DNA of 64,000 nucleotides from an uncultured Planctomycetales bacterium (lineage in GTDB: Bacteria > Omnitrophota > Gorgyraeia > Gygaellales > Profunditerraquicolaceae). The translations under genes and the position numbers were made by a program. This document shows, piece by piece, positions 6,001 to 27,000 of this stretch (position 1 is the stretch's first letter; each line of letters starts with the position of its first letter). The stretch lies in the NCBI GenBank assembly GCA_964603585.1, contig CAZRVK010000003.1, forward strand, positions 3,693 to 67,692, read 5' to 3'. The notes beneath the pieces are model-generated. The model searched no databases, had not been told where the DNA came from, and was given only the letters and a program-made list of their open reading frames with translations.

Positions 6001-9000
6001 AGAAAGACCAGATTTTGACCAGGAGATGTTGTTTAATATGGCTTTTGTATTTATGCTGTATCTGCATAGCGGTCAGCCGCGTTACCATATTGTTAAGCCT
6101 TATGCCGTGCATCCCATGGCCGTTGTTTCTAATTTAGTAATAAATTACCTATTGCCAGTGCATCCCAGCTCTGATGAAGTCGATTATTACAGTGATTTAA
6201 ACATTAGGTCAAAGGTATTTGCCGTTATTGCGGGATTTTTACATGATACTGTGGAAGATATTGCGAAGACATCGTTAGGCAGGCAGTTTGCACCAGATAA
6301 AGAAGAATCACAGGTTGAAGAGCTTCAAGAAGAGGTTTTGGAAGCGATTGAATCCGTGTTTGGGCCTGAAATTTGCTGGCTAGTACGGATTCTTTCCAAA
6401 GAATATCGTAAGGGAATAACGCCAGGAGAAAAGTTACAACGGCAGGAGCGATATGTAGAAGGTTTAATGGAAGGCCCGGTAGAGGCTCAGTTAACAAAGC
6501 TAGCGGATTGGTATAGTAATTTTGCAGAGATTGTTTCTAATCCCGCTGATAGCTATGTGTTCTCATTTGTAGAAAAAGAGTTGCCTTCAGTTTGCAACCT
6601 TATGGATGGAAATCTTGTGCTTCCCAATAGAATACAAACACGCTTTTTAAATGATTTGCTTGGTTTAAGCAGCGCTAGAAGATTAGATTTACCCGGGAAA
6701 GGCTTATTTACTGAAGAAGAATGTGGTAGAATCTTAGATATAATTTATAGTAAGCTGGGTTCAAGAAATCCTCTTCAGACTAGCGGAGTGAGGAAGGGTT
6801 TGTTGTTAGAAAAAGTATATATATCCAAGAAACTTGCGGATATTGATTTAAATACGCTTAAGAAAGAAATCCAGGCTGGTTTTACTGCAATCTGTGATAT
6901 CAAGCGCATATTTGCTGGGGTACAGACGGTTTTAGTAAAACCAAGTTTAGCAACATTAAAGAATGCACAGGATAAAACTACGACCAATCCACTTTTAGTC
7001 GAAGCGATGATTGCGGTTTTACAGGAGTATGGCATACCGAGGATTATTTTAGGTGAAGGATGTGTGGTTGGCAATGATATGCATGCTATCTTTTCACAGA
7101 CCCAAATGTACGAGATAGCGCAACGTTATGGAGTCGAACTGGTTAATTTAAATGAAGCTTCGCAAACAACATTGACGGTTCCTGGTGGGCTTATTAGCAA
7201 AGAAATAAAGGTGGCAGAAATAGCTGCTCAATGTGATTTGATTATTAATATGCCAATAATGAAAACGCACGCGGAATCGGTTATTTCGATTGCGATGAAG
7301 AATCTCAAAGGCGTATTATCCTGGGCAGTAAAGAGAAGATTTCACATGAAAGGTGTTTTTAAGAGCGTAGTTGATTTAAATAAAACATTGCCTAACCAAT
7401 TAGTAGTTGTGGATGCTATAAGGGCTATGGAAGGGTTTGGTCCTGCCCATGGAGAAGTGGTAGAAGTCGGCAGGATCGTAATTGCGGGGGATGCTTTGGC
7501 CGCAGATATTGTATGCGCGCATATCATGGGAATTCCTTGTATTGAAATACCGACTATCCAATTAGCTACTGCAGATGGATGGGGGATACAAAATCCACAG
7601 GTAGTAGGCGATGATATTGAAAACGTAAGGCATTCAATCGGCAGGCCATTTAATAGGCCGTCATATAAAGACGCTATACGTATGCCGTATGCGCATGTTG
7701 TATATGGCCAGAAAACATGTAGTGGTTGTTATGGTACTTCTTCAAATGTCTTCCAGTATCTCGATATGACAAATGGCCCTGTAGATTGGGCGAAGAGGCT
7801 AGGGGAAGATTGGAAGATCGAATTGGATTTTTATGTAGGTGATGTTATCCCTGCACATATTGAGGAGGGGCATTTAGCGGTATTGGTCGGAAATTGCGCT
7901 ATCCAAAAAGCAAAACGGCTTGGTTTGATAGAAGAGAAAGGTATTGTATTTGTGGAAGGATGTCCTCCCGATGGGCGTTCCATATTCGAAGCGATAAAAA
8001 GAGGAAAAGATATGATGCAGGATTTCCCACTTCAGACCAGTGGAATTAGGAAGAAGCTGTTCTTCGATATTCATGCCGTTCGCCGATCTTGCCTTGAATT
8101 AAGCCACCCTGATCTTACCGGTACCGGCCAGAGGATTCGCAGTAATGCTGCAAAGCTTCTACGATTTGAAAGTAGTGAAACAGGCGGGATAATCATCTTA
8201 GAAAATATCATTTCTGAGGAAGATGCAAAGATAAAATCTGATCAGCAGCCGGATTGGGATGTATTGTTTGGCGCAGTAGTCTCCAGAAATATTCTGGGTG
8301 AGAGCGAGAATTCCACAGTCCAAGAATATCAGAGAGATTTAAAATGGCTGCCGGATGATAAAGGCAGAAGAGATTTTCATGTGCATAGCAGTCTTTCGGA
8401 TGGAGCAAGGACCATCGAGGGGGTAATTAGGGAAGCCGTAAGAACAGGCACTAAGTGGATAGCAATCTCTGACCATAATACTGTTATCGGTATGGATAAG
8501 AAACTTGAATTAGGCAGTAAATACGGTGTAAATGTTATCCCTGCATGTGAGTTTGAAAGTTCCGTAACAGTCAATTCTCTCACACGGGGGACTTTATTCG
8601 GGACAAATCATATTTTAGGATATTACTTAGATTGGAATAATCCGCAAATAATTGAATTATGCAAGAATCAGCATTCTATACAGCAATTCCGTGATTTATG
8701 GCAGGCGTATATATTGCAAAGATTTATTCGTCAAATAGGCCTTCCTCTTAAGCATTTTGATACAAAGATGCCTAATGGTGAAACAGTAACGATAAATCCC
8801 TTTGACGTTGCGACATTGATACCGGTGGCGATTCAAAGAAGGATTATCGCATTTGAAGAAAATGGTTTTACAGAAGAAGCAGATAAGGCAAGGATAGTGC
8901 TTGACGGATTAACAGAGGTAGGAGCCACAAGACGTTTAAAAGGAGAATACGTTCAAGGATTGATAAGTTTAATTGAAAAAGCGCTCCAGAATGAAGGGCA

Positions 9001-12000
9001 GTATCAATTATCAGCCGAAGAGAGAGCTCTTATATATAAGCTTTTTGAGTATGCTGATCTTAGCGTTTTATGGCAGGCAAAAAGTGTTTTAGCTTCGTAT
9101 CTTAGAGAGACTAATAAATTAGACACGACAGATATTTATGTTCAAGATATCGCAGGTATTTTTGGGGCTGAAGAAAGATGTAATGTTACTTATGCTACAG
9201 CAGAAGAAGTGGTAGGGAATATAAGAAAATCTGGAGGCGTTGCGGTTTATGCGCATCCAGGTTGGTACTTTGCCAATATTTTCCGTGAGCTCGGAATTCA
9301 AGAGACCTTGGATGGTGTCGCAGGCTTGATTGAAGGAATCAATCATAATACCCAGGGAGGTATTTCGGGAATAGAGGTTTATTATCCTTTTCAAGACCGG
9401 CTTAAGGGCGTTGATGATATTGCTGGAGAAAAGCAAGAATCGACAAAAGTAAAGTATTTTAGAGAAGTCGCCGAGAAATTAGGAATGTTTAGTACTTCCG
9501 GAGTAGATTGGCATAAAGGTAATAATGAGTTTGAGCATATGTCTACAGGGAGGAATTATAATCTTCATGCTTCTTACAGAATGGTCCTGGATATTCAGTG
9601 GGCTGCTAAGAATAGCCAGGTTATTCTTCAAACTTCATCGCTTCGCAAATCGCCCATTTTACAAAACAGTGTTCATATAGGCGGGCATGGTGAAGGATTA
9701 GGTTCTGTTTTTATTTTGCCCGAGAAGAAAACGCTTTCAGGATTTAGTCTTGATAACGGTGGATTTTTTAAGACATTTTTCCGAAATAGTCGAGGGGATG
9801 AATTTCGTAAGCAGCGTGCTAAAGCGCAGGAAGTCTTTGGATTTGTTCCTTACGGCAGTGTCCCGGTATCTTTGCTTGGCCGTGCTCCTCCCAGATTACG
9901 CATTATTCCTGTTTCTTCAAGACCAGCGAATATCAGAGTTGTCGCAGGACTTGTGGCAAAGATCGCGGCTGGCTTAAAACAAAGTTTGCCTACCGGAATA
10001 AAAATAGAGATAGCTGAACCCGCGTTATGCGACGATCTGTTCACAGCAATATCTGTCCCTTATTTAGTTTATCGGCATCAATATGCTTTACCGTATAGCA
10101 TAGAATCAGTATCTGCCGAAATCCCCACTTTAATTATTACTGATTCCGATCTGACTGGTTTCGGTCCTCAGGGGGAGATAAAAAATTATCTTTTTGGCAG
10201 GACATATCCCGCCAATAATATTACTATTACATCGCTTTTTAGATTTCAGCATCATGATAAAAAAGTTCTTCTTGGCAGGAATATTAAGAACGCGCTTCAT
10301 GAAATTGGACATTTGTTTGGATTAGGAACCAGCCGTGCGCGCCTAAGCGCTATGCAACATTGCGCTGATTTGAGGTGCGCGATGCACTTTACTGTTAATG
10401 TAGAAGAGCTCGATAAGGTTAACACTCGTTTTTGTAAAGCATGCAGCGCAGCTCTTGAACAACTGGGTGTAGTCCGTTCAGGCCGTTCTCTTGACAATGG
10501 CGGCACCGAGGAGAATGCGCTTACTTTCCCCAGGGTTAACCCGACAACAGCTAAGTCTTGGAATAAGCTAAAGGCACTTTTTGAGCGGATGAAGAAGGTA
10601 CATATGCTTGATATGTTTAACGCTGACCCAGAGCGCTTTAAGAAGTTTTCCATTCGTTTCGAAGATATGCTGGTAGATTTCTCAAAGAACATAATTGATG
10701 AAGAAGTTTTAACTGAACTTCTTAATTTAGCCCAAGAGGTTGGGCTTGGCGATGCCATTGAGGCAATGTTTACCGGCGCCAAGATCAATGGGACGGAAGG
10801 CAGAGCGGTTCTTCATACAGCTTTAAGGAATCTTTCGAATACTCCGGTTTATGTGGATGGCGAAGATGTAATGCCTAAGGTCAACCGTGTTTTAGCTCAG
10901 ATGGAAGAGTTCTCTGGAAAAGTTATATCCGGGGAGTGGGTGGGCTATACCGGGAAAGCAATTACAGATATTGTCAATATCGGTATCGGCGGCTCAGACT
11001 TAGGGCCGGTGATGGTAAAAGAAGCTTTAAAACAATATTCTGCGCGTAAAGGTTTAAGAGTGCATTTTGTGTCTAATGTGGACGGAACGCATATCGCAGA
11101 AATCCTCGCAGGCCTTGATCCCCAGACAACCCTGGTTATTATTGCTTCAAAGACCTTTACCACCCAAGAGACTATGAAAAATGCCAATACGGCTAAGGCA
11201 TGGTTCTTAGAAGAAGCAAAAGATAAAGAGCATATTAAGAAGCATTTTGTGGCAGTTTCTACAGCCAAAGAAGAAGTCCAGAAGTTTGGTATTGATACCG
11301 CGAATATGTTTGAGTTCTGGGATTGGGTGGGAGGAAGGTATTCTGTCTGGTCGGCAATCGGGCTTTCCGTGGCATGTTATATCGGTTTCGATAATTTTAA
11401 GCAGTTGCTTGCTGGCGCGCATGCTATGGATAAGCATTTCAGGAATACACCGTTTAACCGGAATATTCCTGTGATCTTGGCTTTATTAGGTGTCTGGTAC
11501 AATAATTTCTTTGAAGCCCAGACCCAGGCGATTCTTCCTTACGATCAACACTTACACCGTTTTGCCGCTTATTTCCAGCAGGGAGATATGGAGTCAAACG
11601 GCAAATATGTCGACCGTAACGGGAATCCGGTCGATTATCAAACTGGTCAGATTATTTGGGGTGAACCAGGAACAAATGGCCAGCATGCTTTTTATCAATT
11701 AATCCATCAGGGGACAAAAATAATACCCGCTGATTTTATTGCTTTTGCTCAAAGAAGCAATCAAGATTTTGATAAAGACCCAGAACTGAAGGCGTGTTTA
11801 GACGAACATCATAGAATATTCCTTTCCAATTTCTTTGCCCAGACCGAAGCTTTGATGAAAGGCAAATCTGCCGAAGAAGTCAGAGAAGATTTTAAGAAGG
11901 AAAATGCCAAAAGAAAAGCTAAAGGCCAAAAAGAGTTAACCGAAGAGGAGATCGTTCGGCTTACTCCTTTCAAAGTTTTTAAAGGCAACCGGCCAACTAA

Positions 12001-15000
12001 CTCGATCATGGCTAAGAAGCTTACACCTTATACACTTGGCGCATTGGTAGCGATGTATGAACACAAGATCTTTGTGCAAGGCCTGATCTGGAATATCTAT
12101 AGCTTTGACCAATGGGGGGTAGAGCTTGGTAAGAAACTTGCGGAAGGGATCTTGCCTCAGCTTGATCCTGAAGCTGAAGTAACCGGGCATGATTCATCGA
12201 CAACAGGTCTAATTGGTACTTATAAAGAAATGGCGGAAAAAGATAACGGGTCTATCGATAATGGCGGTTCTTATGCAAACAATATCCCCTTAGCATCTCA
12301 ATCTTCGATTAAAGCTGTGATCTTTGACTGGGGTAATGTGATAACGAGATTTGACTACGCGCGCGCAGCACAAATGCTGGCAGATCGATATGCCGTGCCT
12401 TTTGATACGGCGGTGCGGTTTCTGGAAGGACGTAATAATGATCCGGCAAATCCGCTTTATCAGCACGAGAGATGGATGATAAATGATATACAGCTTACGC
12501 GCGCGGTGCGGGATTGGATCAAGGCACACGGCGTCTTAAGGGATTCGGAGCATTTTGATTTGCGGCAAGTTAGTGATATCTTTAACAGTATTTGGGATTC
12601 TGATATCCCAGGAGTTGTTCCTTTTATGGCTCAATTAAAAGCAAAAGGGTATCTGGTCCGTATTTTATCCAATACAACCTCAATACATCATCGCTGGTTT
12701 GGAGAACATTCCCAGGCCGCTCAAATCCTTGATTCAAAAGAGCATTTCTATGCCTCATATCGGTTAAGGCTCGCTAAGCCGGATGCAGATATTTATCGTG
12801 CGGCTATTGGGCATTTAAGGTTAAAACCGGAACAATGTTTGTTTATTGATGACACGAAGGTGAATGTCGATGGTGCAAAACGGGTTGGGATAGAAGCGGT
12901 ACAGTTTAATCCGGATGAACCCGTAGCTTCTCTTGATACAATAGTCAATACTTTGATGCGTTTGTCCTCAAAAGAAGATTCTTTAGATAACGGTGGTACA
13001 GCTATCCCGCTCGATCAAGCCCGCTCTGCCTATCGATATATTGGTATCTCGATGGGGGGTAATAAACTTGCGGTATCCATTAATGACGGCAATAACAAGA
13101 TGCTTGCTGGGCCTGCAGAATTGCGTTGGGATAGCGATCATAGGTTTGATAATGAGCAGGTAAAAGATGTATCCCGGGCTGATGAGCTGATGAATACTTT
13201 GGTGGATATGATTGCCCGTCTTGCCGATGCTAATAAGATTGCCAGAAGTAGTTTAAAAGCCATAGGCGCTGGTTTGGCAGGCCCGCTGGATAAAGCTACA
13301 GGTATTTTCGGCTCAGATTTTAAAACACCCAACCTTCCTTTTAATAAGTATCCTTTCCGCGCAGAATTACAGAAACGGCTTCTTGTCCAAGGCATAGACA
13401 TTAAACTGGAAAATATTGATATGTATAACGACGGTGAAGCAGCCTTAAGAGGAGAAAGTTTTTCTCCGGAAGGCGCTTTAGCGGATAAAGACGGCGGGAT
13501 TGTTATTATCGGTGGAGGTATTAATATCGCAGTAAATAAAAAAGGGCATGGGTTTATCTATTTTGGCCCGGTTCAGGATAAAGGAGAGATTAAGGAGTGC
13601 GGGCATAACCTTTATCAGGTAAAAGCCGCTCAAGGTAGAATTCATTATTTTTGGTCTGGAGATAGAACTTTTGGCGGGCATCCTATTGAATTGGGCAACT
13701 CTTCCGAGGCAATTAAAGCAAAATGCGGCAATATGGGTGAAGAATACGTTAGGTTGGGAGAGGAAGCGTTTAGAAAAGTATATCCTGATTATCCGTTTAT
13801 CGCTAAAGGCCTGAAAGATTTTGAGGATAGATCTTCCGGCCCGAATATCCGCAAAAGGATCGCGCAAACGATTGCCAGGGCGAAACAAAGGCATTCGCCA
13901 AGGTTAGATGAATATCTGGCGATCGAAGCAACTGCCGGCCGGCAGAAACGCGCGAATGAACTTGAGCGGGCGATTACTCCCGAGGCGGAAAGCGGTAATA
14001 GAACAGCGCTTCGGCTGATCAGGATTTTTGCCGCAGAGATCGGACAGGCATTGGCTGCTTTTATTGCACACTACCAGGAAGAAGAATTTGTGCGGCACCT
14101 GGTATTGGTTTCGGGTGTAAATGAGAATATGGGTAAGGATGTCTATGAGACTGATGCCGACAGGATTAGCGGAATAGATGCATTTATCAAACATATCCGT
14201 ATGAGCGCGCGCCGTGAGCTGATCGAGCACTTTGGTGTTGAAGCAGACCGTGCAGAGGATATGGCTTCAGGCATTGTTCGCTCCAAGATGGATTACACCC
14301 GTGAACTGTTATCGTATCAGCCGACAGATACGGAAGTAATGGACGCGTATAAACAAACTAAAACTTCAGAAGCATCTTTAGATAATGGAGGATCGAGGCA
14401 AAACTTTACGGTTCTTGTGGCAGAGGATTCTCCGGTAGAACAAGACGAGTATATTGCTAAGCTGACCGCTAAAGGATATAAAGTGGTTCTTGCCAAAGAT
14501 GGTATAGCGGCTTTGAGTTTGCTTGAAAATGGTTTGGATCCGGATCTTGTGCTGACTGATTACAAAATGCCCGGGATGCGGGGAGTTATGCTGGCAAAAC
14601 GTATCCGCCAAATGCAAGCTACCATGCCGATCGTACTGCACACCAAGGAAGATGAGGTTATCGGAACAACTTATGAGATCGCGCCAGGTGAGAAGATCAC
14701 TGGTTTAAGTAAATATGCGCAGGAGGGTTTAGATGAAGTAGACAGAATATGGGCCAAGCTTAATAGCAACCAGAATAATACGACAGAAGGATCTTTGGAT
14801 AATGCAGGAGAATATGACAATGCTTATCCTGCCTCAATGGAGTTGACATCTGAAGAAATGACATTGCCCAATATGATGTTAGAAGAAGTTCAAACAGCCT
14901 TTGGGAAAATTGCTCCTTATAGCATGGGCGCGCGGATGTTCGCTTCTGCTTTAGCGGACAGTGTGGTGATCTCTATTCTGCCTTTTGATGCCCAGCAGGC

Positions 15001-18000
15001 AAGAAACCGGATCGGTTTTAGGGCGCAAGAAGCAATCGCGGTTTATGATGGCCAGATACTTTGGTTCTCCTGGGCGCTTCTAAGGCGTTTTCATAGGATA
15101 CATGAAGTTGATATTCATGTGGATAGCGCGGTATTAAAATATTTCCTTGAAGGGATTTTCTATCTCTATTTTGTTGCTGATCAGTCTTATCCTAAGCTGA
15201 TGCAGGAATGTTTATCGCTAAAAAAACATATTCTGGTTTCTACTTTATATGTCGCACAACACCCGGAATTATTCCATGTAAACGTTGCGCCAGCCTTTGT
15301 TTCTGAAATTAAAGCGAATACTCCCGAGGCATTGCAAGAATACCCCTCTTCCCAGATCAAATGGATTGCATTCGATCTTTATGGTGTTTTGCTTAATGAC
15401 ATAAATGAACAGCCGATCGAAGCGGTGGCCGGGCTGTTGTCTGGATTGAAGGAATTAGGGTATGGGATCGATATCCTTTCTAATGCCACAGCAAAAGAAT
15501 ATAAAGAAGCAAGTAAAATGCCCTTTATACGCTATGTCGATCGATTTTTCCCCGCATTTCATACTGAAACGAAAAAACCCGGGATCAGCGCCTTTGGTTT
15601 ATTGCTTAGGGGGCTGGCGATGCCTGATCCCCGCCAGGCTGTGCTTGTTATCGATGATTCCCAGAAGAACATCTCTGGGGCATCTGAACTCTTTGATCAT
15701 GTTATTTTTTACCAGGAGGGAGCCGATATTAAAGCAGCGTTACTTAAAAAAGGCGTATTTTTGCATGATGAAACTTCTTTTGATAACGGTGGAGAAGTAA
15801 ATCCCGGTATAGACATGCCATTTACCGAGTTATTATTTTTATTGTTGAAAGAAAACGTTTACGGAATAAGCCCGTCGACCTTTAAACTGGTTGCCTCACT
15901 TTTGGGCGTAGGCCAAGAGATCACTCCGGAAGTTATCGAAGTAATGAGAAAAGAATTGCCTCCGGAGTCATTATGGATGCTCCAAAGGGCGTATCGGGAT
16001 ATCGCTCAAAGATTCAATGCCCAGGGTATTGACGTAGCACAGTTTCGCAACAATCCATTTTTCTGGGGGAAGAATGCCGATGGGCAGGCATATCTTTTAA
16101 CCGGGCAGAATCTTTCTGCCGATGCCGTAGTAACAAAATGCGCGGGGTCAGAAGGATTCACCTCTAAGGTCAGCGAGATCGTAATTAAAGGGATACACGA
16201 TATTTTTGCCGCCGAAGGGATTAAGACCGAAGATTTTATTAAATTCGCTGATGCAGGGTCATGGCATGTAAGTATTGCTGCGCTTAAACCCAAACTCGAT
16301 ACCGATGTTACGGATGCGCAGGTCAGACAAGCAAGCGCCGATATTAAGCAGTTAACGCGTAATATGCGGTCCTTCTCTATCATTTTCGATAGGGTGATCA
16401 TTGCACCAAACGGCACGGTAATGGTGGTTGGCTATGATAACAACGGCCAGGCAACGCAGTTGCGGGACGGATTGGCAAAAAGTTACCGGGATTACGAATA
16501 TAGCCGGATGAATATCTTCCATATTACTATTGGACGATTCATTGAGAATCCGCCTCAACAGGTTGTAGAAACTTTAAAGAAGTGGGTTATGGCCTTTGCC
16601 TGGGAACGATTGGGGACGATTAAGGTGGATAGTATTGTTTTGGCAAGCCAGAAGGGCCCGATTATTCAGCCGACGTTTAAGGAGTGGGAAAGATTCGAAT
16701 TAGCAGGAAAACCGGTAATAAGTTTGAGCCTGGTTAACGAATATTCTCGGCCATCGGATATAAGTTTTATTAAACGCCAATTATTTATGTCCGGCGTCTA
16801 TGGTGCGCTTTTCTTTGCACCGATCGGGTTACTCGCGACACTTTATATCGCTCCATTTTCGCTTTTATGGATAGCGGTAGTCCCTGTTATTTCCGGATTA
16901 CTTGGCGGGGTTTTTCTTGCCGGGCTACATTTAATCGAATTACATCTATCAAACCCAACTCCCAGGGCTATTCTTGATGCCGAATGGCTTGCGGATATGG
17001 CGGTAAGGCATGAAAAGAAGGTTCTTCAAGGGCAGGTTGCAGAAGAGTCATTCGATAACGGGGGAGTATTTTCGGAAGGCACAACTCGAGACGATCCAGC
17101 CAAGAAACGTTTCCTGCACGTGGCTGTTGGCGTTATCGGTTTTGTTATTGTTGTAATAATCCTGAATAAGTTAGTTGTTACCCTCGGCCTATTCTCCGGG
17201 CAGAGCCTGTTTGCGCTTTATATCAGTGCCTACGCGCGGTATCCGTTTTGGGTCGCGGGCTTAACTGCTTCATTAGAAGGCGCCGGAGCGGAATTGATCG
17301 GGTATTACCTGGCGCGCAATAATAAAGAAAAAATAAGAACGTGGATTTCTATATCCAGGTTTACCGGGATATTTTTATTCAGGTTATTGATATTAGGCCC
17401 TACAGCCGGATTAGTCGATAGGTTCATTGAATATCTCCTTCCAAAATCCGCCGCCGTAGGGACATCCGATCTTATTTTGCGCGTAACATTATCTTTGATC
17501 CACGGGGTCATTTTAAGCAGTTTAGTTAATTTCCTGGCGCCTTATTTCTGTTTTAGGCTGGAAGCAAGAGCCAGGCTAAAAGAAGGAAAGTTAGCGGAGG
17601 CAGATGATCTAAGAGAAAAGTATACTGCGGCCAAACAACTCAAAAGGACATGGCATTCAATCATCTTACGCATCGGCCCGGTTATTATACAGCATGATAT
17701 TATCCAGAACATTTTCGGTTATGAATTAGCGTATAAGATATTATCACGGTTTGGCATTGGTTTTATAAATTCAATATACCGGAGCTGGATAACTAACCTT
17801 AGCCATAAGGTAAATATAACTTCCACGAATATCCTTGCGGTTACTTCTACGGTCGCATTGATCAGTTTTATCTGGGGGTCAAAGCTAACGGCTATTTCTG
17901 CAATCGCATTAGAGTTATTAATCGTGCTTTGCGAAAAGATAAAGGCCTTCAAAATAAAGCAAGCGCTTAATGATAGGGAGAAATCTTTGGATAACGGAGG

Positions 18001-21000
18001 GGGAAAACAGGCGTGGGATTACAGTGTTATTCAACGCGCGAAAGTCGGCAAGGAAATACCCCGCGTTTGGCAGGATTATTTGCCTGTCTTAGAGCATGTA
18101 ATTAGTGAAGACGATCAATTTATTAGTGACGCATTTCAGAATATATTCGGTTTAGAAATAACCCGTGCAGATATATCAGGCATAAATATCGAGTATCTGG
18201 TCTCTGGTGGCATAAAACACGTTTTTGTTACAACCGTTACGCTTGTGACCGGTAAAAGATATGTGTTTGCACTAAAGCCCACAATTGTCGGTTTAAGCTC
18301 GGAGGACAGGGAAGATATCATGTCTACTATGTGGACTTGGAACGGATTTTGCAAGCGGGGCATCAAAGGGATCGCTAAATTCGGAGCAGACGCGACAGTT
18401 TATTTCAGAGATTTTCATCATTCCAGCATGATCATTGCCCAGGAGTTTGTCCCCGGCAAAACACTGAAAGAAATTATTGATGATACGGATCTTCCTTACT
18501 GGGCGAAGACCCAGGCGGTACGTAATGCCTACCGGGCATACATTACTTTACGCAAAGATAATCTCATTGCCATTACCGATCCGAAACCGGCCAATATCGT
18601 CGCCCTTAATGGTTCTATTTTCGACTGGATAATCATTGATATGGATAAACTGCGCACCGGCAGTGACCCCTTGCAGAGGGGGATGTCTGTCGAAGAATAT
18701 GAGCAAATACTCGATAACTATTATATCGATGAAATTCAAAAGCCTGTTTCAGCTGAAGCCTTGCCTGGAGTTAAGATCTTAGGCCATGGCAATTTCTTCC
18801 CGGCTGATAAAATAATCCATTTTCCTGCTGGCCAACCGTTTCCGGTATTCTTTACGCTTGACACTACCTCACATATCCGAACAGCAAAAGTTCAGATACA
18901 GGCCAAGGTATGGTATGAGGATAAACTTACTGGGGGATGGGAAGAAGCATTTATGACGATGGTAAATGATTATGAAAATGGCTCATATAGGTTCGGGGCG
19001 TATCTTCCAAGTGATTTTGAAGGCAAGTTTACCTTTAAGGCTTCAGTGGATGGCGGGATAAACTGGCATTGGGCAAATAACGGGCCTTTCGATAACAGAG
19101 TGCTTGTGCGTATCGGTAAAGAGGCTCCTTTAGATAACGGGGGAGAAATCAAGACCGGCAAAGAATTTTTAAATTACGAACCCGTAGAGTTAGGATCCGG
19201 GACAAGCGGGATAAGAGGCTTGGTTGTAAACATGTCTGATCTGGAATGTTATATCAATACAGTGGGCTTTTTGGATTATTTGAAAGGAATAGGCCTGCAC
19301 GAAGGAGGTTTGCAGGGAGGGGAATATATTTGTGTTGCCGGAGATTTGCGCTCCAGTACTCCCAGGATAATGCGGGCAGTAGCTCAAGCTGTAGTTGATT
19401 CTGGATACCGTGTCGATAATTGCGGATTCATTCCTACTCCGGCATTGGCGTATTATGCCATGCAAAACCGGCGTGTTAGTATTATGGTCACCGGAAGCCA
19501 TATCCCGGATAACCGTAATGGGATAAAATTTTACAAATCAAACGGCGAGGTACTAAAATCCGATGAGGCAAAGATCAAAGAGCAGGTAACGTATGCAAGG
19601 GGAAATATTTATGCCAAGTTAGGCATGCCGGACTCATTGTTCAATGAGGAGGGGATGTTGATAACTGTGCCGCAATTGCCCCCGGTAAATCCTGCGGCAA
19701 GAGAAATGTATATTTTTAGATATTTGTCCTTGTTCCCGAAAGAATGCCTTGCCGGTAAGAGGATCGTTCTTTATGAGCACTCTTCGGTAGGCAGGGATAT
19801 TTTAGCTGAAATTTTCTCTGGATTAGGCGCAGAGGTTATAAGGGAAGGGAGGAGCGACGGTGTATTTATACCCGTTGATACGGAAGCCATACGTCAACAG
19901 GATTTGGATTGTATAAAAGAGTGGGCAGGTATTTATAAACCATTCGCGCTTATTTCTGCTGATGGAGATGCTGACCGTCCATGGTTATCAGATGAAAATG
20001 GTGTATTACTGCGGGGTGATTTGTTAGGTGTTTTCGCGGCAAAATACCTCAAGGCGGATTTTGCGGCTGTTCCGATAAGCACTAATGACGCGGTTGATAT
20101 CGCGCTTTCCGGAGAGGTAGCAATAGAAAAGACGAAAATAGGTTCTCCTTATGTTATCGCTGGCATGTTGGATGCGGTTAAAAAAGGTTTTCGCAGGGTT
20201 GTAGCCTGGGAAGCAAACGGAGGTTTTCTTTCGCAGACGGACATCGAAATAAATAATAAGCTGCTCAAGGCTTTGCCTACCAGAGATGCGGTTTTGCCTG
20301 TTATCTGCGCGTTGCTTCTGGCTGTTGATTCTGGCAGGCCGTTATCTGATCTTATAAGTGAACTGCCTAAGCGGTTTACTCATTCCGGACTGGTCAAGGA
20401 TTTTCCCGTTCCCGCATCACAATCGGTCATTAAGAGGATCTCTCCCGGGATCACTGATGTTGATGAGGTGTGTTTTAATGATTCTGTTCCGGTATTATTC
20501 CGGGATGGCGCAGTCTTGAGGCTTTTAAATGACAGCGATATATCGAGAAAGCTGTTGGCTTATAAGGCAATGGTTGAAAAGAGATATTTCCGTACTCATG
20601 GCCTTCCGGCGATTGCGAATATTAATTTAGTTGATGGAGTAAGGATCCGGTTTAAAAATAATGACATCATTCACTTCCGGCCTTCGGGCAATGCGCCTGA
20701 ATTGAGATGTTATTCTAATGCGGGGTCTACCGATCGCGCTATGGGGTTAGTTGATATAGGATTAATGAATATAATCCCGCTGTTGGCCTCACCATCTCTG
20801 GATAATGGAGGGGAAATAGATAATGGCGGAGATATTGTTAATACTGATGGTGATTTGCATATAGTTTGGTATGGCGATGATTATCCGCAAGAACAGGCCG
20901 CTGTTTATGAAGGCCGAAAGTTTGTACGGGTATACAGATCAATCAGGATGAATAAAAAGGTTAATTCTCCAGATCAGCAATTACTTCTGCGCCTGTGGTG

Positions 21001-24000
21001 CAGCCGCGCGGATAATCCGGATAAATGGTTTGAAATCCCGGCACAGATAATAAATGATTATGGCGATGGGAGTTACCGTTTTAAAGCGGACTTACCGCTA
21101 TTTTTCTCCGGAACATATACATATGTATTTTCAGCTGACCGAGGCAAGCATTGGTCCTGGTTAAACAATGGCCTGAAAGATAACAGGCGGATTTACAATT
21201 ATGTTTCTCTATTGCCTGATTTGCGTGAACGGGAAATATCTGTTTCTTTCGATAAGAAGGCGTTGTCAATGAAGAAGATCATTGATGGATCCCCTGATAT
21301 AGAAACGTTTTTCCGTTCACGTCAAGGGCAAAGAGGGGTGGCAAAACTCGAGTATTACCGGGATGAAAAACCAGTCGGGTTTGTTTACTATTTCGCCAGG
21401 ACTGAAGTAACCAAATTAACGGCAGAAGATTATAAGGTGATCTTTGCTGATTATATAGATAGTGCGGATGAAAAGCTGGGCGGGGCAGTTGCGATATATT
21501 TCAGCAGAAAAGATATGGCGGTTGTGGTTGATCTATATGGGAACATGCAGGAGGAAGTGATCTTCGGTAACATTGAAGAAAGATCCCGGGGTGAATTAAG
21601 CTGGGATAAGGCCAGGATCGTTATTGAACTTGATAATGACCTTAATGTCCGCAAGGTCAGGCATGAAAGAAGCTTTATGGGGTTATCGCGAATGGGGATA
21701 TCCATACTAATTTCTTCTGCCGGTATCCCCGAATCTTTTCCTGAATTGTATGAAACACTTAAATATAATCTGGGTTTGTGCGATGCCAATGAGATGGTCA
21801 GGCATGTGGAGAGGACAGATAATACTGTGGTTCCCTTAAGTTTGATCTCCAGGATTAATAAAGACCCGCAAACCGCCAAGATCGAGGATATTGAGAGGAT
21901 CAAAGACTTGATTTATTGTAAAAGCTGGGCTATCCGCAGGCTTGTTTTGGGTTGTTTAAAGCAGCTTGTCCAAGTGAACAAGTTCTCTATGGAAGAGCTT
22001 GATGAATTCAGGGGATTTGCAGAACGCTGCGAGATAACCGAGGATCTGCATCTTTTGCGCAGGCAGGCGCTTGAAAGGCCGGAGGATATTACGAGCGCTT
22101 TAGCGGTGCTTTTTGGCATACAGGTGGGAGTAGATGACCTTTCCGGGATGTACGCATATTGGTTTGGCGCTGGCCAAAATAAGAATATTTACCGCCTGAT
22201 AATTTCTTTGCGCGATTCCAGAGAATTTACTATGGCCGCTTCTACTATACGGCATGACGCGATAGGGCAAGGGTTCAGCAAAACAAGAATTGATGAATCT
22301 ACGCGGTTATGGCAGGAATTGTCCGAGGCCGGCTGCCCCTATGTGTGCAAGCTCGGCAAATCCGTATGGGTTGAAGATTACCGTCCGCGTGCTGCAGATA
22401 GAAGTGTCACGCCTTCTTTAAAACCCTGGGTATATTATGATCCGGCATGCCTTATACATAATGATATTAATCTTGTATACAGGGAGTTTGTAGAAGGCGA
22501 TGATTTAGAGGATATACTGGGTGCGGAAGGATTTGCTGACAAGGAGAAAGAAGAAGCGCTCGCCGCCTGCATCAATGTTTATGATAAGCTATGGAGATTT
22601 AACGACGGGGGATATTATATCGGTGATTATAAGCCATCCAATATAATCTTGAGTAAAGACGTAAACGGCCGGTTTATCGGTAAGATAACCGATTTGGATG
22701 CTTTACGCGCAAATGGTCGTCTTGAGGTGGTTTTTAATGCGGTTAAGGTTCATGCCTGTTATTTACCGCATTTAGCGGGGCTCCTGGCTAAGGAGAGAGT
22801 TTCTCAAATAACCGGTTCATATGTTGAGGATTTAGCCGATTCTTTAGGAGAGAACATAGTGTTTAGCCAGGAATTATATCCTTTGCCTTCTTGCGCGGGG
22901 ATAAGTATGGCCATTGAGCAATTCTTGAGTGGATTACATGCAAAATTACAATTGTTTGGGCTTGCAGGTGTCATAAACTTCAGCGTGCCGCTGGTGGAAT
23001 TAGTGGCGAATACGATCCAGCATGGATTAGGGGGAAAGATAGCCGTTGTCGTAAAGACCGATACTGACTGTAATCCTACAGATATCAAGGTATATTGCCA
23101 GGATTACGGATTAGGCATGGTTAGCCCGGATAAGTTGCTCAAACAAAGCTATGAGGCGCATAAATTAAAGAAACAAAGCGAAACAGAAGCTTTGGAGCGC
23201 GATGGGCTGCAAGGTGCGCCGGTACAAAAATGGCACGGCCTCGGGATGCTTAATATGTGCGTTTACCCTGATGAAGTAGAGATCAGGACTCCCGGAGGTG
23301 TATGGATAAAAGAAAATACCGGAGACGTTGGACAGCCAATATTAGTAAAGAAAGGAGAATCAAAATTTTCTTTCGGCACTATGACAGTATTGACCTGGCA
23401 TGTCAAAGATTGGGATCTTAAGAAGGAGGCGGTTTCAGAGGTTCAATCCGGTTCTGCCGCGTTTGGAATAATTCCTGTAAGCGTATTATTCATTTTAGTC
23501 TGGGCCGTAATTTATGGTTTATTTATTAAAGGCGGATGGGTCTCTAAAAAAGAGGAGGTGACGAGATGTCAAGATTTGAACAGCTCGAGTTCACCCGCGT
23601 CATGTCGCGAGAAGCAGGGATATTTATCTTTGCAAAATATCCTGGCTGGTATTATGAGTACAATTTTCTCATTCAGCCCAATGGTAAAGTCCAGGGGAAG
23701 ACAAGTTTTAACAATTGGGTTGAACTTAGCCGTGAATTGTCTGATATGGTTACTGCCAGGGTTAAAACCGTGTTTATTAGCCAAAAAGAACGGATTTCTT
23801 CGTAAGGAAAATGGAGGTATATTTTTATCGCCGGAAAAGAAAACGATTACAAGCCATAGCTTATCTTTGGATAATGGAGGAGAGGTCCAGAAGAAAGCAA
23901 AGATCTCTATGTTTGCCAATGTAGTGCGCCAGATCAATACCGCGGCGCGCGCTATGGGGCTTCATCCGGAGATCCTGGATCGCCTGGTCAATCCTAAGCA

Positions 24001-27000
24001 TTTCAAAGAAGTGCGCATGGATATACCGGTTGCGGTCGAAGGCAAGACTGTAAATCTGATTGGATTCCGGATCGTGCATAATGATGCCCGCGGCGCAGGT
24101 AAAGGCGGGATCCGTTTTGATAATGTGAAGTCGCTGGATGATCTAAGCGCAGAAGAACTCTTAGAGGTGATTGCCCATATTCTCGATGAGGATCGGGCGC
24201 TGGCCAGTTGGATGAGCTTAAAGAATGCCGTGGCGCTTATCCCTTACGGCGGAGGCAAGGGGTGTGTGGCGGTGCCTCTGGATATTGTTCCGAAAAACGC
24301 CAAAGGGGAGGAAGTCGTCGGTTATGTGCATTCTGCGGTGATCCGCCAGTATGTTTTAAAGGCTTATGAACAGGGTAAATACCTTTTTGGGCCATATATA
24401 GATGTGCCGGCCCCGGATATGCGTACTAAAGGCCAGATCATGGGGTGGTTCCTGGATGAACATTTAAAATTAAAGACCAGGCTTAACCTTTTAGAACAGC
24501 ATTTTATAGACAGGTTACTTCCATTATTAGACACTGAATATGATATCCTTAAAACTCCTTTTTATGATTTGTACTTGTCCCTGGGAGGCACAGTTGAACT
24601 CGGTACTATTACAGGAAAACAGGTTTCAAGGGATGATCCTGAAACCGGCTCAAAAATAATGATCGGCGGGTCCTTGGGCCGTGAAGCGGCAACCGGCCGC
24701 GGTGTGGTTTATGCGACGATCGAGGCGCTCAAGGAGTTTGGTGAAAGGTTAGGTATTGGCACAGAGTTGAGAGGAAAGACCGTTGCGGTGCAGGCGATCG
24801 GTAATGTCGGCGGGCATGCCGCGAGGATTTTCTTTGAAGAAGGGGCAATTGTTACCGAAGTTAGCGATTTTCCGGGAAAAATCACTGATCCCCGGGGGAT
24901 CGATATGGCGGATCTTTTCGCACGGATAAAACGCGATGGGATGCTTAAGGCTTTCCAAGAAACCCATGGTTTTGAGCCGTCGGATAAGGCAGTATCAATT
25001 TTAGAAGCCGATGTGGATATTTTAGTGTTGGCATATCGGGAAAATCAGCTTACCAAAGATAATGCCGGCAGGGTGAGAGCCAAGATCGTTGTTGAAGGCG
25101 CTAACGGCCCGACTACTCCGGAAGCAGACGCGATCTTAGAGGCTAAAGGGATTATTGTGGTGACCGATATTTTAGCTAATATCGGCGGTGTGGTAGTTTC
25201 ATATTTTGAATGGCTGCAGAACTTAAAAGGCGAGCATTGGACGGAGATCGCAGTAAATAAGATGTTGGAACAAAGAATGGCGGTTTCCTTCCGCGATGTT
25301 GTCGCCTCTTCCCGGCAATACAATGTCAGTTTGAGGATCGGGGCGACTATTTTAGCGATAAAACGGATTGCTTCGGCAATGGTGGCAAATGATAAGGATT
25401 TAAGGCAGAAGATTTCCGCAGAAAACGTACTTCCCTATAAAGGTTACGATATCCTTGAGTGTTACGAAACTCAAGAAGAGCTCAACCTCATTTATGAATC
25501 CGGACGTTATCAGGAATTTGTAGATTTGCGTGAAGGGCAAATTGACCGTGAGATCGAGCTGATTGCCGAACGTCTCTTAAAAGAACTGCCGCAAAACAGC
25601 AAGAATTTCGTCTTGGTTTCTGGGCCTAGCGCAGTCGGTAAACCTTATTTTGTCATACGTCTTGCGGAAGCGGTCAGGCGTATTGATAGAAAGATACGTA
25701 CTTGTTGTTTTGCCTTAGATACTAACGGTGCAGCTTTATTCGATGTTATAAAGAGTTTGGATAAGAACAGCATAATATTTATTCACGGCGATAATGCCCT
25801 GGATAAATATTTTGTCAGGGCATTTAACCCCAGAAATACGATCACTATCTTTGAAAATACCGCACCCAGCCTGAAATTATCCGGCAATAAGCCTTTTACC
25901 TCGTCAGATCTTAGGCTGTTGAGACTTATCCTGGAAAAGGCCGCTGAAGGGTATTCGGCAATCGATGTGATAAGGGATTGGCATGATTTACGCGCCCAGC
26001 AGATCGAAAATATCTATCCGAACTGGGGGAATGCCCGCATTACATTTAATGGCCAGGTCGGTTATGAATTACCGTTTTTAAGGAATGCCTTAGAGGGGAT
26101 ATTAAAACAGGCTTTAGTGCAAGCCCAAGCCGCGGATGCCCCGCATTCTTTGCAGATCATCTCTGGCCTCTTGGATTTATTCCAGGGTTTTGTGGCCATG
26201 CCTTTATTAAGGGTGGAAGATTTGCCTTTGCGCTCTACCCCGCGCCAGTTTATCCGCAAGACAGAGGATGTTTTATCTGCGCTTAATTCTACGGCAAAAA
26301 TTAATGGGCAAACTCCTTCAGGCAAAGTTAATAATTATCCTCTACCCGTATCGGCCCAGATCCATGAGGGTATGCTTGAAAGCGGGGCTTCCTGTTCGGG
26401 AAAGGCCGAGGCAGTATTGCGCGACGGAAAATATATTTTTGAATGGAAAGAAAACGCTTCCGAGAACCTGTGGCGGGAGATATTGGAAAGCCTGGCAAAC
26501 GAGCAGGCGGTATTTGCCCGCGGGCCGCCGAGTTTCATTGTCGAGATCACTCTTGATAAGGAAAAACTCGGGGTACATCCGGCAAGCGGATTGGTTTATA
26601 TCGCTGCCTGCGATATCGATACGAAAGTCATTTATCTGCACCCGTACTTCTTCGAACAAAATCCATTAAAGCAAAAAGTAATTTTATACCATGAATTGAT
26701 CAGCCATATCTCTATGGCAATTAAAAACGAAGAGCAGGCTATGACAGATACCTTGGTTTTTTCCGATAAACATCTGGGTAAAGACCTGGAGAAAGATTCT
26801 GTCGACGGTATTTTTATTATCCCTGCCAGTGCCCGAAACCAGGCGTTTGCTAAGCGTCTGGTTGCTCTAAATGAACAATCCCGGAAACAGGGAACGGACA
26901 GTGTCATTCAGGCAGTGCTGGAAGATGATGAGTTAAGAACCAGGGTTTGTTCACTGATCCGCACCCAGGATAGATTGGGCAATACCCGGGGTTATTATGT

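Follow-up and report, generated by a model that had tools for sequence, protein, structure and literature searches.

Whether the many enzymes encoded in one uninterrupted open reading frame (ORF) are made as one protein or as many is the question raised by a 64,000-nucleotide stretch of contig CAZRVK010000003.1 (positions 3,693 to 67,692, forward strand; assembly GCA_964603585.1, from an uncultured bacterium of the Omnitrophota), hereafter called the window. An original prediction, made from the DNA letters, had placed a series of central-metabolism enzymes in this ORF. We found that the enzymes are separated by short recurring peptides (hereafter boundary tags), LQTS[GS][VLI]RK in the first part of the window and S[LIF]DNGG in the second, and we put the chances that these are sites of proteolytic processing at about even. 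While the enzyme-string architecture has already been described, the boundary peptides between the enzymes seem to be new.

The window is occupied by a single frame, which is open at both window ends over 21,333 codons:

2-64000 (+): single ORF with a uniform coding signature; 0 stops, as compared with 640-1714 stops in each of the remaining five frames

The codon-position signature was even in 42 of 42 bins of 1.5 kb, stretches without a Pfam match included, with ~0.34 G and ~0.63 purine at codon position 1 in all bins. Tiling of the translation against Pfam in 1000-residue pieces gave ~25 distinct families along the chain, none dominant by copy number, and BLAST of the window against itself showed almost no internal repeats. 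GC skew was positive in all 2-kb bins (0.07-0.24), and the G+C content was ~0.41 in the first 10 kb and ~0.45 thereafter, the shift lying roughly where the tag type changes.

A frame of this length might be a mis-assembly, or might consist of remnants of decayed genes that are open by chance. The truncated or very divergent state of several units listed below (an acetate kinase fragment, a glycogen phosphorylase fragment, and a PALP-family enzyme dependent on pyridoxal 5'-phosphate (PLP), matched at 1.5e-7 against the PDB) could be taken in favor of such an origin, as could the scores of most units, which lie under the NCBIfam equivalog cut-offs. However, the absence of stops from the whole frame cannot arise without selection, the coding signature is uniform, and the glucose-6-phosphate isomerase (PGI) and phosphoglucomutase (PGM) units are intact; moreover, related ORFs stay open over more than 5-7 thousand codons in independent assemblies, and giant ORFs were confirmed on long-read complete genomes according to Nielsen & Lui 2026 (bioRxiv 10.64898/2026.06.07.730766). 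We regard an artefact or a gene fossil as very improbable.

A search for over-represented short peptides in the translation revealed the two tags. LQTS[GS][VLI]RK occurs in 6 copies confined to residues 227-3216, and S[LIF]DNGG in 10 exact copies and 3 close variants confined to residues 3249-7960, whereas in 2000 shuffles of the protein LQTS[GS].RK was found 0 times and S[LIF]DNGG on average 0.0025 times (maximum, 1). The Bonferroni-corrected p value of the over-representation was 3.7e-16. The copies are as follows:

680-703 (+): tag A1, LQTSGVRK, residues 227-234
2567-2590 (+): tag A2, LQTSSLRK, residues 856-863
4694-4717 (+): tag A3, LQTSGVRK, residues 1565-1572
6773-6796 (+): tag A4, LQTSGVRK, residues 2258-2265
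8030-8053 (+): tag A5, LQTSGIRK, residues 2677-2684
9626-9649 (+): tag A6, LQTSSLRK, residues 3209-3216
9746-9763 (+): tag B1, SLDNGG, residues 3249-3254; its first base is the start coordinate of the original prediction
10487-10504 (+): tag B2, SLDNGG, residues 3496-3501
12251-12268 (+): tag B3, SIDNGG, residues 4084-4089
12980-12997 (+): tag B4, SLDNGG, residues 4327-4332
14375-14392 (+): tag B5, SLDNGG, residues 4792-4797, in a low-confidence linker past the last helix of the ROK-like model
14792-14809 (+): tag B6, SLDNAG (variant), residues 4931-4936
15776-15793 (+): tag B7, SFDNGG, residues 5259-5264
17048-17065 (+): tag B8, SFDNGG, residues 5683-5688
17984-18001 (+): tag B9, SLDNGG, residues 5995-6000
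19127-19144 (+): tag B10, PLDNGG (variant), residues 6376-6381
20795-20830 (+): tags B11 and B12, a doublet, residues 6932-6943
23864-23881 (+): tag B13, SLDNGG, residues 7955-7960, last in the series

All copies lie between units, outside the domain envelopes, at a distance of a few to ~45 residues from the domain end where the adjoining unit has an annotated domain. The units that they delimit measure 133-1011 residues, each corresponding to the size of a native single protein. Since the copies differ in their synonymous codons and have unrelated flanks, the tags are conserved at the level of the peptide; the same two facts rule out DNA repeats or recombination sites. The first and the last SLDNGG share an upstream motif, [LS]PEKKT[LI].., at nt 9716-9745 and 23834-23863, which may mark the borders of the section.

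The first section, punctuated by LQTS[GS]xRK, contains the following units, with E values of profile matches:

704-2566 (+): B12-binding and radical S-adenosylmethionine (SAM) unit, 621 residues; Radical_SAM 1.5e-11, B12-binding 4.4e-4, CX4CX2C cluster motif CAWGHCTYC
2591-4693 (+): unit with a CofD-like domain at its end, 701 residues; CofD 3.6e-7
4718-6772 (+): unit with a weak HD domain, 685 residues; HD 0.005
6797-8029 (+): DUF362 unit, 411 residues; 6.2e-45, profile positions 1-199 of 200
8054-9625 (+): PHP domain unit, 524 residues; 2.1e-10

The final ~240 residues of the CofD-like unit together with its tag are 59% identical to residues 1-234 in the self-BLAST (residues 1329-1572, nt 3986-4717, against nt 2-703), both stretches terminating in LQTSGVRK, and this unit end is apparently duplicated along with its tag. 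The cluster motif of the radical SAM unit (residues 481-489, nt 1442-1468) is of the form CX4CX2C, the canonical form being CX3CX2C.

The second section, punctuated by S[LIF]DNGG, contains these units:

9764-10486 (+): archaemetzincin-like (M54) zinc peptidase unit, 241 residues; PF07998 6e-13, NF033823 4.7e-20
10505-12250 (+): full-length PGI, 582 residues; 1.7e-240, profile positions 1-486 of 486
12269-12979 (+): HAD-IA phosphatase unit, 237 residues; HAD 1.3e-16, TIGR01509 58 bits against a cut-off of 29.4
12998-14374 (+): enlarged ROK-like sugar kinase unit, 459 residues; PF00480 4.8e-6
14393-14791 (+): response-regulator receiver unit, 133 residues; Response_reg 4.8e-14, LVLTD acceptor site
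14810-15775 (+): second HAD-like hydrolase unit (weak), 322 residues; HAD_2 0.0074, Hydrolase_6 2.7e-4
15794-17047 (+): 2H phosphoesterase-like unit (weak) with a hydrophobic stretch of ~53 residues, 418 residues; TIGR02258 5e-5
17066-17983 (+): membrane unit with several hydrophobic segments by hydropathy, 306 residues
18002-19126 (+): protein-kinase-like core (DPKPAN ... IIDMD) with a C-terminal beta-rich part, 375 residues
19145-20794 (+): PGM (phosphoglucomutase/phosphomannomutase), 550 residues; Pfam PGM domains I-IV, PDB 4hjh 4.3e-93
20831-23863 (+): module without annotation, 1011 residues; protein-kinase-like core at residues ~7085-7590, hydrophobic helices at residues 7814-7849 and 7902-7928
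23882-25387 (+): glutamate dehydrogenase-type (GDH) unit; ELFV_dehydrog N- and C-terminal domains 2.8e-22 and 4.2e-66, PDB 4xgi 3.8e-75

The PGI unit is the only one that reaches an NCBIfam equivalog cut-off (NF001211, 831 bits against 492; model positions 4-542 of 544). It carries both PROSITE signatures, as well as the catalytic Glu (ESNGK) and Lys, and is 79% identical to a fragment from a metagenome-assembled genome (MAG) of Omnitrophica and 70% identical to PGIs of free-living Bacteroidota (Dyadobacter); the unit starts ~10 residues ahead of the canonical PGI N-terminus and stops at the canonical C-terminus. The PGM unit aligns with residues 10-468 of 481 of the 4hjh chain and keeps all four active-site loops, that is, the phosphoserine loop (TGSHIP), the metal loop (DGDADR; DxDxDR), the sugar loop (EANGG), and the phosphate loop. 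It scores below the NCBIfam equivalog cut-offs (144 against 439); the sole match in a scan of GTDB representative genomes was a 1049-residue ORF of a Lentisphaeria MAG (42% identity). The GDH unit aligns with residues 28-428 of 436 of 4xgi and keeps the motifs KGGIRF, YGGGKG (with the catalytic lysine), and DVPAPDM; its Rossmann motif is AIGNVGG, in which the first glycine of the dinucleotide fold is altered, and it contains two insertions of ~30 and ~60 residues (Pfam, 223 and 79 bits; equivalog, 295 bits against a cut-off of 750). As judged from these alignments, the motifs required for catalysis are kept in PGI and PGM and for the most part in GDH, and several modules look catalytically intact.

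Among the remaining units, the HAD-IA phosphatase has glucose-1-phosphatase as its top named match (NF006991, 2.1e-23), under the cut-off of that model, and the second HAD-like unit is 28% identical to the first in the self-BLAST. The ROK-like unit passes the PF00480 cut-off (26.7 bits against 22.9) and does not reach that of the NCBIfam glucokinase (19 against 260). Its AlphaFold2 model (predicted local distance difference test score (pLDDT), 83.7) is closest to the ROK glucokinases 3vgk and 2qm1, with a target-normalised TM-score of ~0.7 to the best PDB matches and ~150 extra residues. The stretch from 9.7 to 20.8 kb is a coherent hexose-phosphate/glycogen set, consisting of PGI, a HAD sugar-phosphatase, a ROK-like kinase, and PGM, in which regulatory units (the receiver and protein-kinase-like cores) are interspersed. 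The 1011-residue module is rare: a set of 1.84 billion proteins yielded 50 representative homologues, most of them within proteins 1-6 thousand residues long. A profile built from them matches the kinase domain of IKK-beta at 2.4e-4, spanning the hinge, DxKPxN, and DLD motifs. The PGM unit is thereby flanked by two related protein-kinase-like cores with DPKPxN ... IDxD (residues 6027-6219, nt ~18080-18658, and residues 7349-7570, nt ~22046-22711), which belong to a rare family without a Pfam model; in a relative (P0132), as in the window, the kinase-like module is followed by an ELFV dehydrogenase. Directly after GDH, without a tag or helix in between, lies a P-loop-like stretch (residues ~8480-8575, nt 25442-25720) with a weak AAA_16 match.

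Most of the enzyme series that had been proposed was borne out by these searches. In Pfam, M54, PGI, HAD, ROK, receiver, PGM, and GDH follow one another in the predicted order, PGI with its hallmark motifs and the second HAD-like hydrolase as a weak match; the hydrophobic cluster at residues 5593-5984 accounts for the predicted membrane modules; and the pair of Pta and truncated Ack, as well as PALP, was found later in the ORF, so that PGI, PGM, GDH, Pta, and PALP were all recovered. On the other hand, the CBM48-like domain, proposed for what is the beta-rich part of the 375-residue unit, and the MTHFR-like module had no Pfam match at E<=5 in the window (the latter left an NCBIfam trace at E=0.033), and the proposed kinase/ATPase-like module is weakly supported in its protein-kinase-like core by the IKK-beta match. 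Alignment of catalytic residues, suggested as a check, confirmed PGI and PGM as intact; for GDH it showed the catalytic lysine kept and the Rossmann motif altered, and for the divergent Pta the LSR motif kept. Of the functions that had been considered, a moonlighting or structural role is unlikely for PGI and PGM because their catalytic motifs are intact, whereas release by processing is newly and specifically supported by the boundary tags.

Neither tRNAs nor Rfam families were detected in the window, promoter-like and terminator-like sites were not above shuffled controls, and a Shine-Dalgarno sequence with a start codon followed 4 of 18 tags, which is no enrichment over the 17% expected at random. 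These results indicate that the units cannot be made separately; several also lack a Met near their start. With separate transcription and internal initiation excluded, free enzymes, if made, must be released post-translationally. We propose that the content of an operon would be translated as one chain, in which a short peptide would stand in place of the stop codon, spacer, and start codon of the operon. This peptide is first LQTS[GS]xRK and then S[LIF]DNGG, whose place is taken in the third part by one hydrophobic helix with a loose motif ahead of it. The tags would then be recognition sites for site-specific proteolysis, and cutting at them would release separate soluble or membrane-anchored proteins.

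Other roles of the tag peptides were considered. An internal Shine-Dalgarno sequence (GGAGG in the Gly-Gly codons) was rejected, many copies using GGT or GGC and no start codon following. Self-cleavage at Asn-Gly is unlikely as a general mechanism, the remaining tags having no Asn-Gly. Canonical double-glycine processing by a C39 peptidase, for which hydrophobic residues at positions -4, -7, and -12 before GG were taken as the criterion, is not supported: the tag has an Asp at -4 and variable residues upstream, and PF03412 is not found in the window, beyond which the gene ends lie.

For the S[LIF]DNGG section, a protease may be contained in the chain itself. The M54 unit opens this section, has a tag on both sides, and carries zinc motifs, and is therefore a candidate protease for the section, nothing more. 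The archaemetzincin consensus is HEXXHXXGXXHCX4CXMX17CXXC (PMC3427221), and an archaeal archaemetzincin is a zinc endoprotease with self-cleavage (PMC4681839). In the window, the unit reads HEIGHLFG-x12, then HCX4CXM (Met-turn), -x16-, and CKAC (CXXC), with all ligands kept; it passes the Pfam cut-off (49.7 bits against 24.4) and lies below that of the NCBIfam subfamily (72 bits against 145).

The tags of related proteins were compared at homologous units. The ROK-like unit is ~50% identical to a module that is common to many multi-enzyme ORFs of Omnitrophota, including proteins of 1,700-2,650 residues in which PFK, ribulose-phosphate epimerase, transketolase, 6-phosphogluconolactonase, glycogen synthase, or cupin PGI is found as well. 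On metagenome contigs, the module lies in ORFs that are open across the whole fetched loci (more than 5,300-7,100 residues), next to PFK, PMI, PfkB, glycogen synthase, B12-radical SAM, and FTHFS; at another locus (L004/L005), a 15,934-residue ORF is followed by same-strand ORFs of 186, 2,583, 1,842, and 2,305 residues. Fusion and fission of these arrays are thus labile in evolution.

The peptides at the borders differ from protein to protein. In a 3,445-residue ORF (L013), A[AGS]SPV occurs 15 times (p=2e-28), immediately before and behind the ROK-like module and also flanking a canonical ROK domain. In P0129, SSSP[LVM] separates glycogen synthase from the ROK-like module and recurs after the module; K[KA]YPAG flanks the module on both sides in P0122; and the tag of P0126 is GGK[PL]FG. 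In the closest relative of the ROK-like unit (L009), FDNGG follows the module. PGI orthologues 69-77% identical to the PGI of the window are flanked by SLDNSS (L001) or by SSP-type tags (P0002). Judging from these comparisons, tags that are uniform within a protein and different between proteins at homologous units would look like sites co-evolving with a dedicated factor. The L009 ORF (6312-14648) has at least 2,779 residues and contains, besides the ROK-like module, a formate-tetrahydrofolate ligase of nearly full length (2.3e-197), an NAD-dependent epimerase, and a radical SAM domain. In the closest PGI relative (L001, 2100-2200), SSLDNSS comes after PGI, and the next frame runs into a stop 11 nt from where it opens; this break reflects either a true gene fission at a former tag or an assembly frameshift error.

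After residue 7960, isolated hydrophobic helices separate the units. The features of this third part, hereafter section C, are as follows:

27860-28195 (+): glycogen phosphorylase fragment; 1.2e-10, profile positions 321-432 of 713
30698-30844 (+): sigma-70 region 4 helix-turn-helix; 2.5e-5
32888-33676 (+): divergent phosphotransacetylase (Pta); PTA_PTB 5.6e-29
33707-34291 (+): truncated acetate-kinase-like (Ack) unit; Acetate_kinase fragment, profile positions 287-347 of 392
40469-40834 (+): HD domain; 1.4e-10
41333-41692 (+): SAM-dependent methyltransferase-like domain; profile match
43505-43768 (+): Methyltransf_11 domain; 7.7e-9
47321-47560 (+): cytidine/dCMP deaminase zinc domain; 1.2e-16, HSE ... 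PCFRC
55688-56713 (+): PLP-dependent (PALP) enzyme of the threonine/serine dehydratase type; 5e-20
62801-63085 (+): HATPase_c (histidine-kinase ATPase) domain; 1.6e-12
23441-63700 (+): section C, ~27 isolated hydrophobic helices as unit separators, by hydropathy
Starts of the 19-residue hydropathy peaks of section C (+), first part: nt 23456, 29006, 30182, 34367, 35471, 37010, 39371, 41063, 42638, 43202, 44315, 46667, 48347, 49790
Starts of the 19-residue hydropathy peaks of section C (+), second part: nt 52544, 53495, 54158, 54788, 55517, 56828, 57545, 57707, 59315, 60014, 60392, 61292, 63632

In the very divergent Pta, the LSR motif is kept at the position that aligns with the active-site region in M. 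thermophila Pta. The Ack-like unit retains the N-terminal VLVLN..KYQL and a C-terminal part, the middle being lost, and its natural C-terminus adjoins the next helix junction. The PALP unit keeps the SFKIRG lysine. Ahead of most helices of section C stands a loose motif, [S/N]-x-[A/C]-F-x(1-3)-P, and K/R comes after them, although a Gibbs search of the helix junctions gave a modest information content of 8.1 bits, compared with 6.9-7.1 in shuffles. NCBIfam models of known sorting signals (PEP-CTERM, LPXTG, and others) did not match the helix junctions at E<=0.5, and a prepilin-type signal was rejected, the basic residues lying after the helix and not before it. In the window and in a related fragment (L012; ORF residues 1307, 2329, 3161, 3712, and 5274), the helices follow a short hydrophobic pre-segment rich in F/C/P and a turn.

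These helices bear on the possibility that the chain is never cut and forms a membrane-tethered megaprotein or metabolon, with the enzymes side by side on the cytoplasmic face and the tags serving as hinges, folding pause sites, or docking sites. Such an arrangement agrees with the absence of a hydrophobic helix from the first ~5,590 residues, which places everything from radical SAM to the second HAD on one membrane side, and with the functional relation among the PGI, phosphatase, kinase, and PGM units. Uncut multifunctional enzymes do exist, for example AROM, CAD, and a transaldolase/PGI fusion (NF007080); many of the relatives' tags contain Gly or Pro, which could slow translation; and Nielsen & Lui interpret a class with transmembrane (TM) segments only as cytoplasmic domains anchored in the inner membrane. 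However, a hinge or a pause needs neither an identical hexapeptide 10-13 times nor a different one in the next protein.

Topology also speaks against an uncut chain. The window contains ~35-40 hydrophobic segments by Kyte-Doolittle hydropathy, and at 34 hydrophobic peaks (>=2.0) the first charged residue was acidic on the N-terminal side in 23 and basic on the C-terminal side in 24. A shared orientation of all isolated helices is weakly indicated, the bias being clear in the first charged residue alone, and an uncut chain could hardly satisfy the same preferred direction at all of them. The helix counts between cofactor-dependent domains are, moreover, odd in several places (1 between HD and methyltransferase, 5 between methyltransferase and deaminase, and 9 between PALP and HATPase), which would place SAM-, PLP-, or ATP-dependent domains of an uncut chain outside the cell. 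This argument from helix direction and odd counts is soft, with hydropathy as its basis. Taken together, we consider an uncut chain rather unlikely, and processing at the tags is retained as the working interpretation.

The locus is very probably an Omnitrophota-type giant multi-enzyme gene, of which the window is an internal piece. The original prediction took the architecture to be undescribed, but two preprints describe such proteins. West-Roberts et al. 2023 (bioRxiv 10.1101/2023.11.21.568195) report giant Omnitrophota proteins of the 'Archaeovorin' type, with many TM helices and with glucose-phosphate isomerase, PGM/PMM, TPI, FBPase, and aldolase domains, whereas Nielsen & Lui define a class of 'multi-enzyme metabolic clusters' of up to 147,155 residues with PGM, ROK, receiver, radical SAM, HAD, methyltransferase, HATPase_c, and HD domains; Seymour et al. 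2023 likewise report that many Omnitrophota genomes contain giant ORFs. The window shares with these proteins an ORF of tens of kb with many Pfam families, none dominant, and many hydrophobic helices, and it has PGI, PGM/PMM, ROK, HAD, receiver, radical SAM, methyltransferase, HATPase_c, and HD in common with them. With more than 21,333 residues open, it lies above the limit of at least 10,000 residues for the multi-enzyme cluster class. The closest relatives of its modules come from Omnitrophota assemblies, and the best PGI match and most ROK-like matches come from MAGs named Omnitrophica or Omnitrophota; the window itself contains no marker genes.

Differences from the published proteins concern both the content and the borders. 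GDH, Pta/Ack, and PALP are present in the window and are not named in the preprint passages considered. Archaeovorins are defined by at least 30,000 residues, an N-terminal C39 or S8 peptidase, a SecA DEAD-like domain, and type II secretion-like genes upstream; C39, S8 peptidase, and SecA-like domains are not among the Pfam matches of the window, the gene ends lying beyond it. Recurring boundary peptides are mentioned neither in the two preprints nor in the papers from a full-text literature search. In West-Roberts et al., cleavage is named as an open question with no cleavage points known, and their lack is said to hamper structure prediction and functional dissection, whereas the words 'cleavage' and 'proteolytic' are absent from the text of Nielsen & Lui. 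Proteomic data, as far as they are discussed in the literature, are sparse and concern another organism.

For Archaeovorins, an exported protein acting on prey has been put forward, in which the sugar enzymes would pre-process prey sugars outside the cell or enter the prey. West-Roberts et al. predict an extracellular location for such domains and describe secretion-system genes beside the giant genes, and Nielsen & Lui place a 147-kaa multi-enzyme protein outside by DeepTMHMM; smaller relatives with the ROK-like module also have signal-peptide-like N-termini. These topology calls are, however, doubted by both preprints themselves. Furthermore, the PGI of the window is conserved like housekeeping orthologues, and adhesin, dockerin, and glycoside hydrolase domains are absent from the Pfam matches of the window. 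PGI, PGM, the sugar kinase, GDH, the SAM methyltransferases, the histidine-kinase-type ATPase, and PALP require phosphorylated substrates, ATP, NAD(P), SAM, or PLP, and phosphorylated intermediates, ATP, NAD(P), and SAM are unavailable outside cells. An extracellular effector fits the window poorly and appears improbable, and the enzymes would presumably reside in the cytoplasm.

Several findings weigh against processing at the tags. The cleavage is deduced from sequence alone, and within the window there is no protease candidate for LQTS[GS]xRK. The M54 unit contains a 10-residue insertion within the zinc-binding consensus, before the third His, and a homologue search with it retrieved none; folding of single modules, a check suggested with the original prediction, succeeded for the ROK-like unit, which matches ROK glucokinases, and failed for M54, whose single-sequence AlphaFold model is unusable (pLDDT 36). 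Strong punctuation is not universal: the last 13,373 residues of the window have no significant exact tag, also with a reduced alphabet, nor have the giant-ORF fragments L010, L012, L014, and L015. The helices of section C are called from hydropathy alone, and the K/R totals of their 15-residue flanks are weakly asymmetric (80 against 97). Ack, the phosphorylase fragment, and PALP are divergent or truncated, and the units need not all be active enzymes.

With these points taken into account, it is possible, at slightly less than an even chance, that some bacteria express one operon's worth, or dozens of operons' worth, of ordinary cytoplasmic and membrane proteins in the manner of an RNA virus, that is, as a giant product cut at protein-specific junction peptides by a protease within the chain; the tags would then be the first processing sites to be mapped in giant Omnitrophota proteins, and the helix junctions a third, membrane-embedded separator. 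The viral polyproteins of picornaviruses, flaviviruses, and coronaviruses (pp1ab) resemble the window in having one ORF, units of mature-protein size, a short conserved junction peptide, soluble and membrane-anchored units mixed, and an embedded protease flanked by its own sites (here a candidate); their junction motifs likewise vary by lineage while the units stay homologous. Unlike these, the window belongs to a cellular organism and encodes housekeeping enzymes in a chain at least 3x as long as any viral polyprotein; its cleavage is predicted, and its candidate protease is a metzincin, whereas the viral ones are chymotrypsin-like or papain-like. The likeness of LQTSGxRK to the coronavirus LQ↓SG sites (↓, cut) is presumably coincidental.

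Multifunctional enzymes that stay uncut (fungal AROM, CAD, fatty-acid and polyketide synthases, and transaldolase/PGI) are similar in joining successive enzymes of a pathway in a single polypeptide, and the hexose-phosphate set of the window is coherent in function. They consist, however, of 2-8 modules whose linkers are variable and carry no repeated tag, whereas in the window at least 40 units come from unrelated pathways, with membrane segments and with conserved peptides at the borders. In the multi-product precursors of bacteria, a recurring short recognition sequence marks each cut, as in the Mycoplasma hyopneumoniae P97/P102 adhesins with their cleavage site S/T-X-F↓X-D/E. Such a sequence is also shared by gingipain RgpA/Kgp, the Atl autolysin, and the multi-core precursors of cyanobactins, which are ribosomally synthesized and post-translationally modified peptides (RiPPs), but all of these precursors give few products and are either short peptides or proteins that are secreted or located at the surface, and none is an array of cytoplasmic enzymes.

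Giant Omnitrophota genes make up a sizeable share of very small genomes. The boundary tags offer explicit, testable cut sites, and for structure prediction and annotation they allow the giant proteins to be divided into natural units. Should processing prove true, pathway steps 'missing' from Omnitrophota surveys, such as PGI, which is reported in 67 of 176 complete genomes, may hide in giant genes, and a polyprotein strategy of the viral type would be at work in the housekeeping metabolism of a cellular organism.

Two further observations were made on the relatives with ROK-like modules. Three relatives of 2,200-2,650 residues (P0121, P0124, and P0125; also L004, 10001-17752) have a signal-peptide-like N-terminus (basic residues, a helix, and FDISWA[HY]P), which is odd for proteins with PFK, epimerase, or kinase domains, and share a conserved C-terminal domain with a terminal ALAAA. 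At another locus (L011, 8045-12970), a single ORF of at least 4,541 residues contains 3 tandem ROK-like modules together with a homologue of the kinase-like module.

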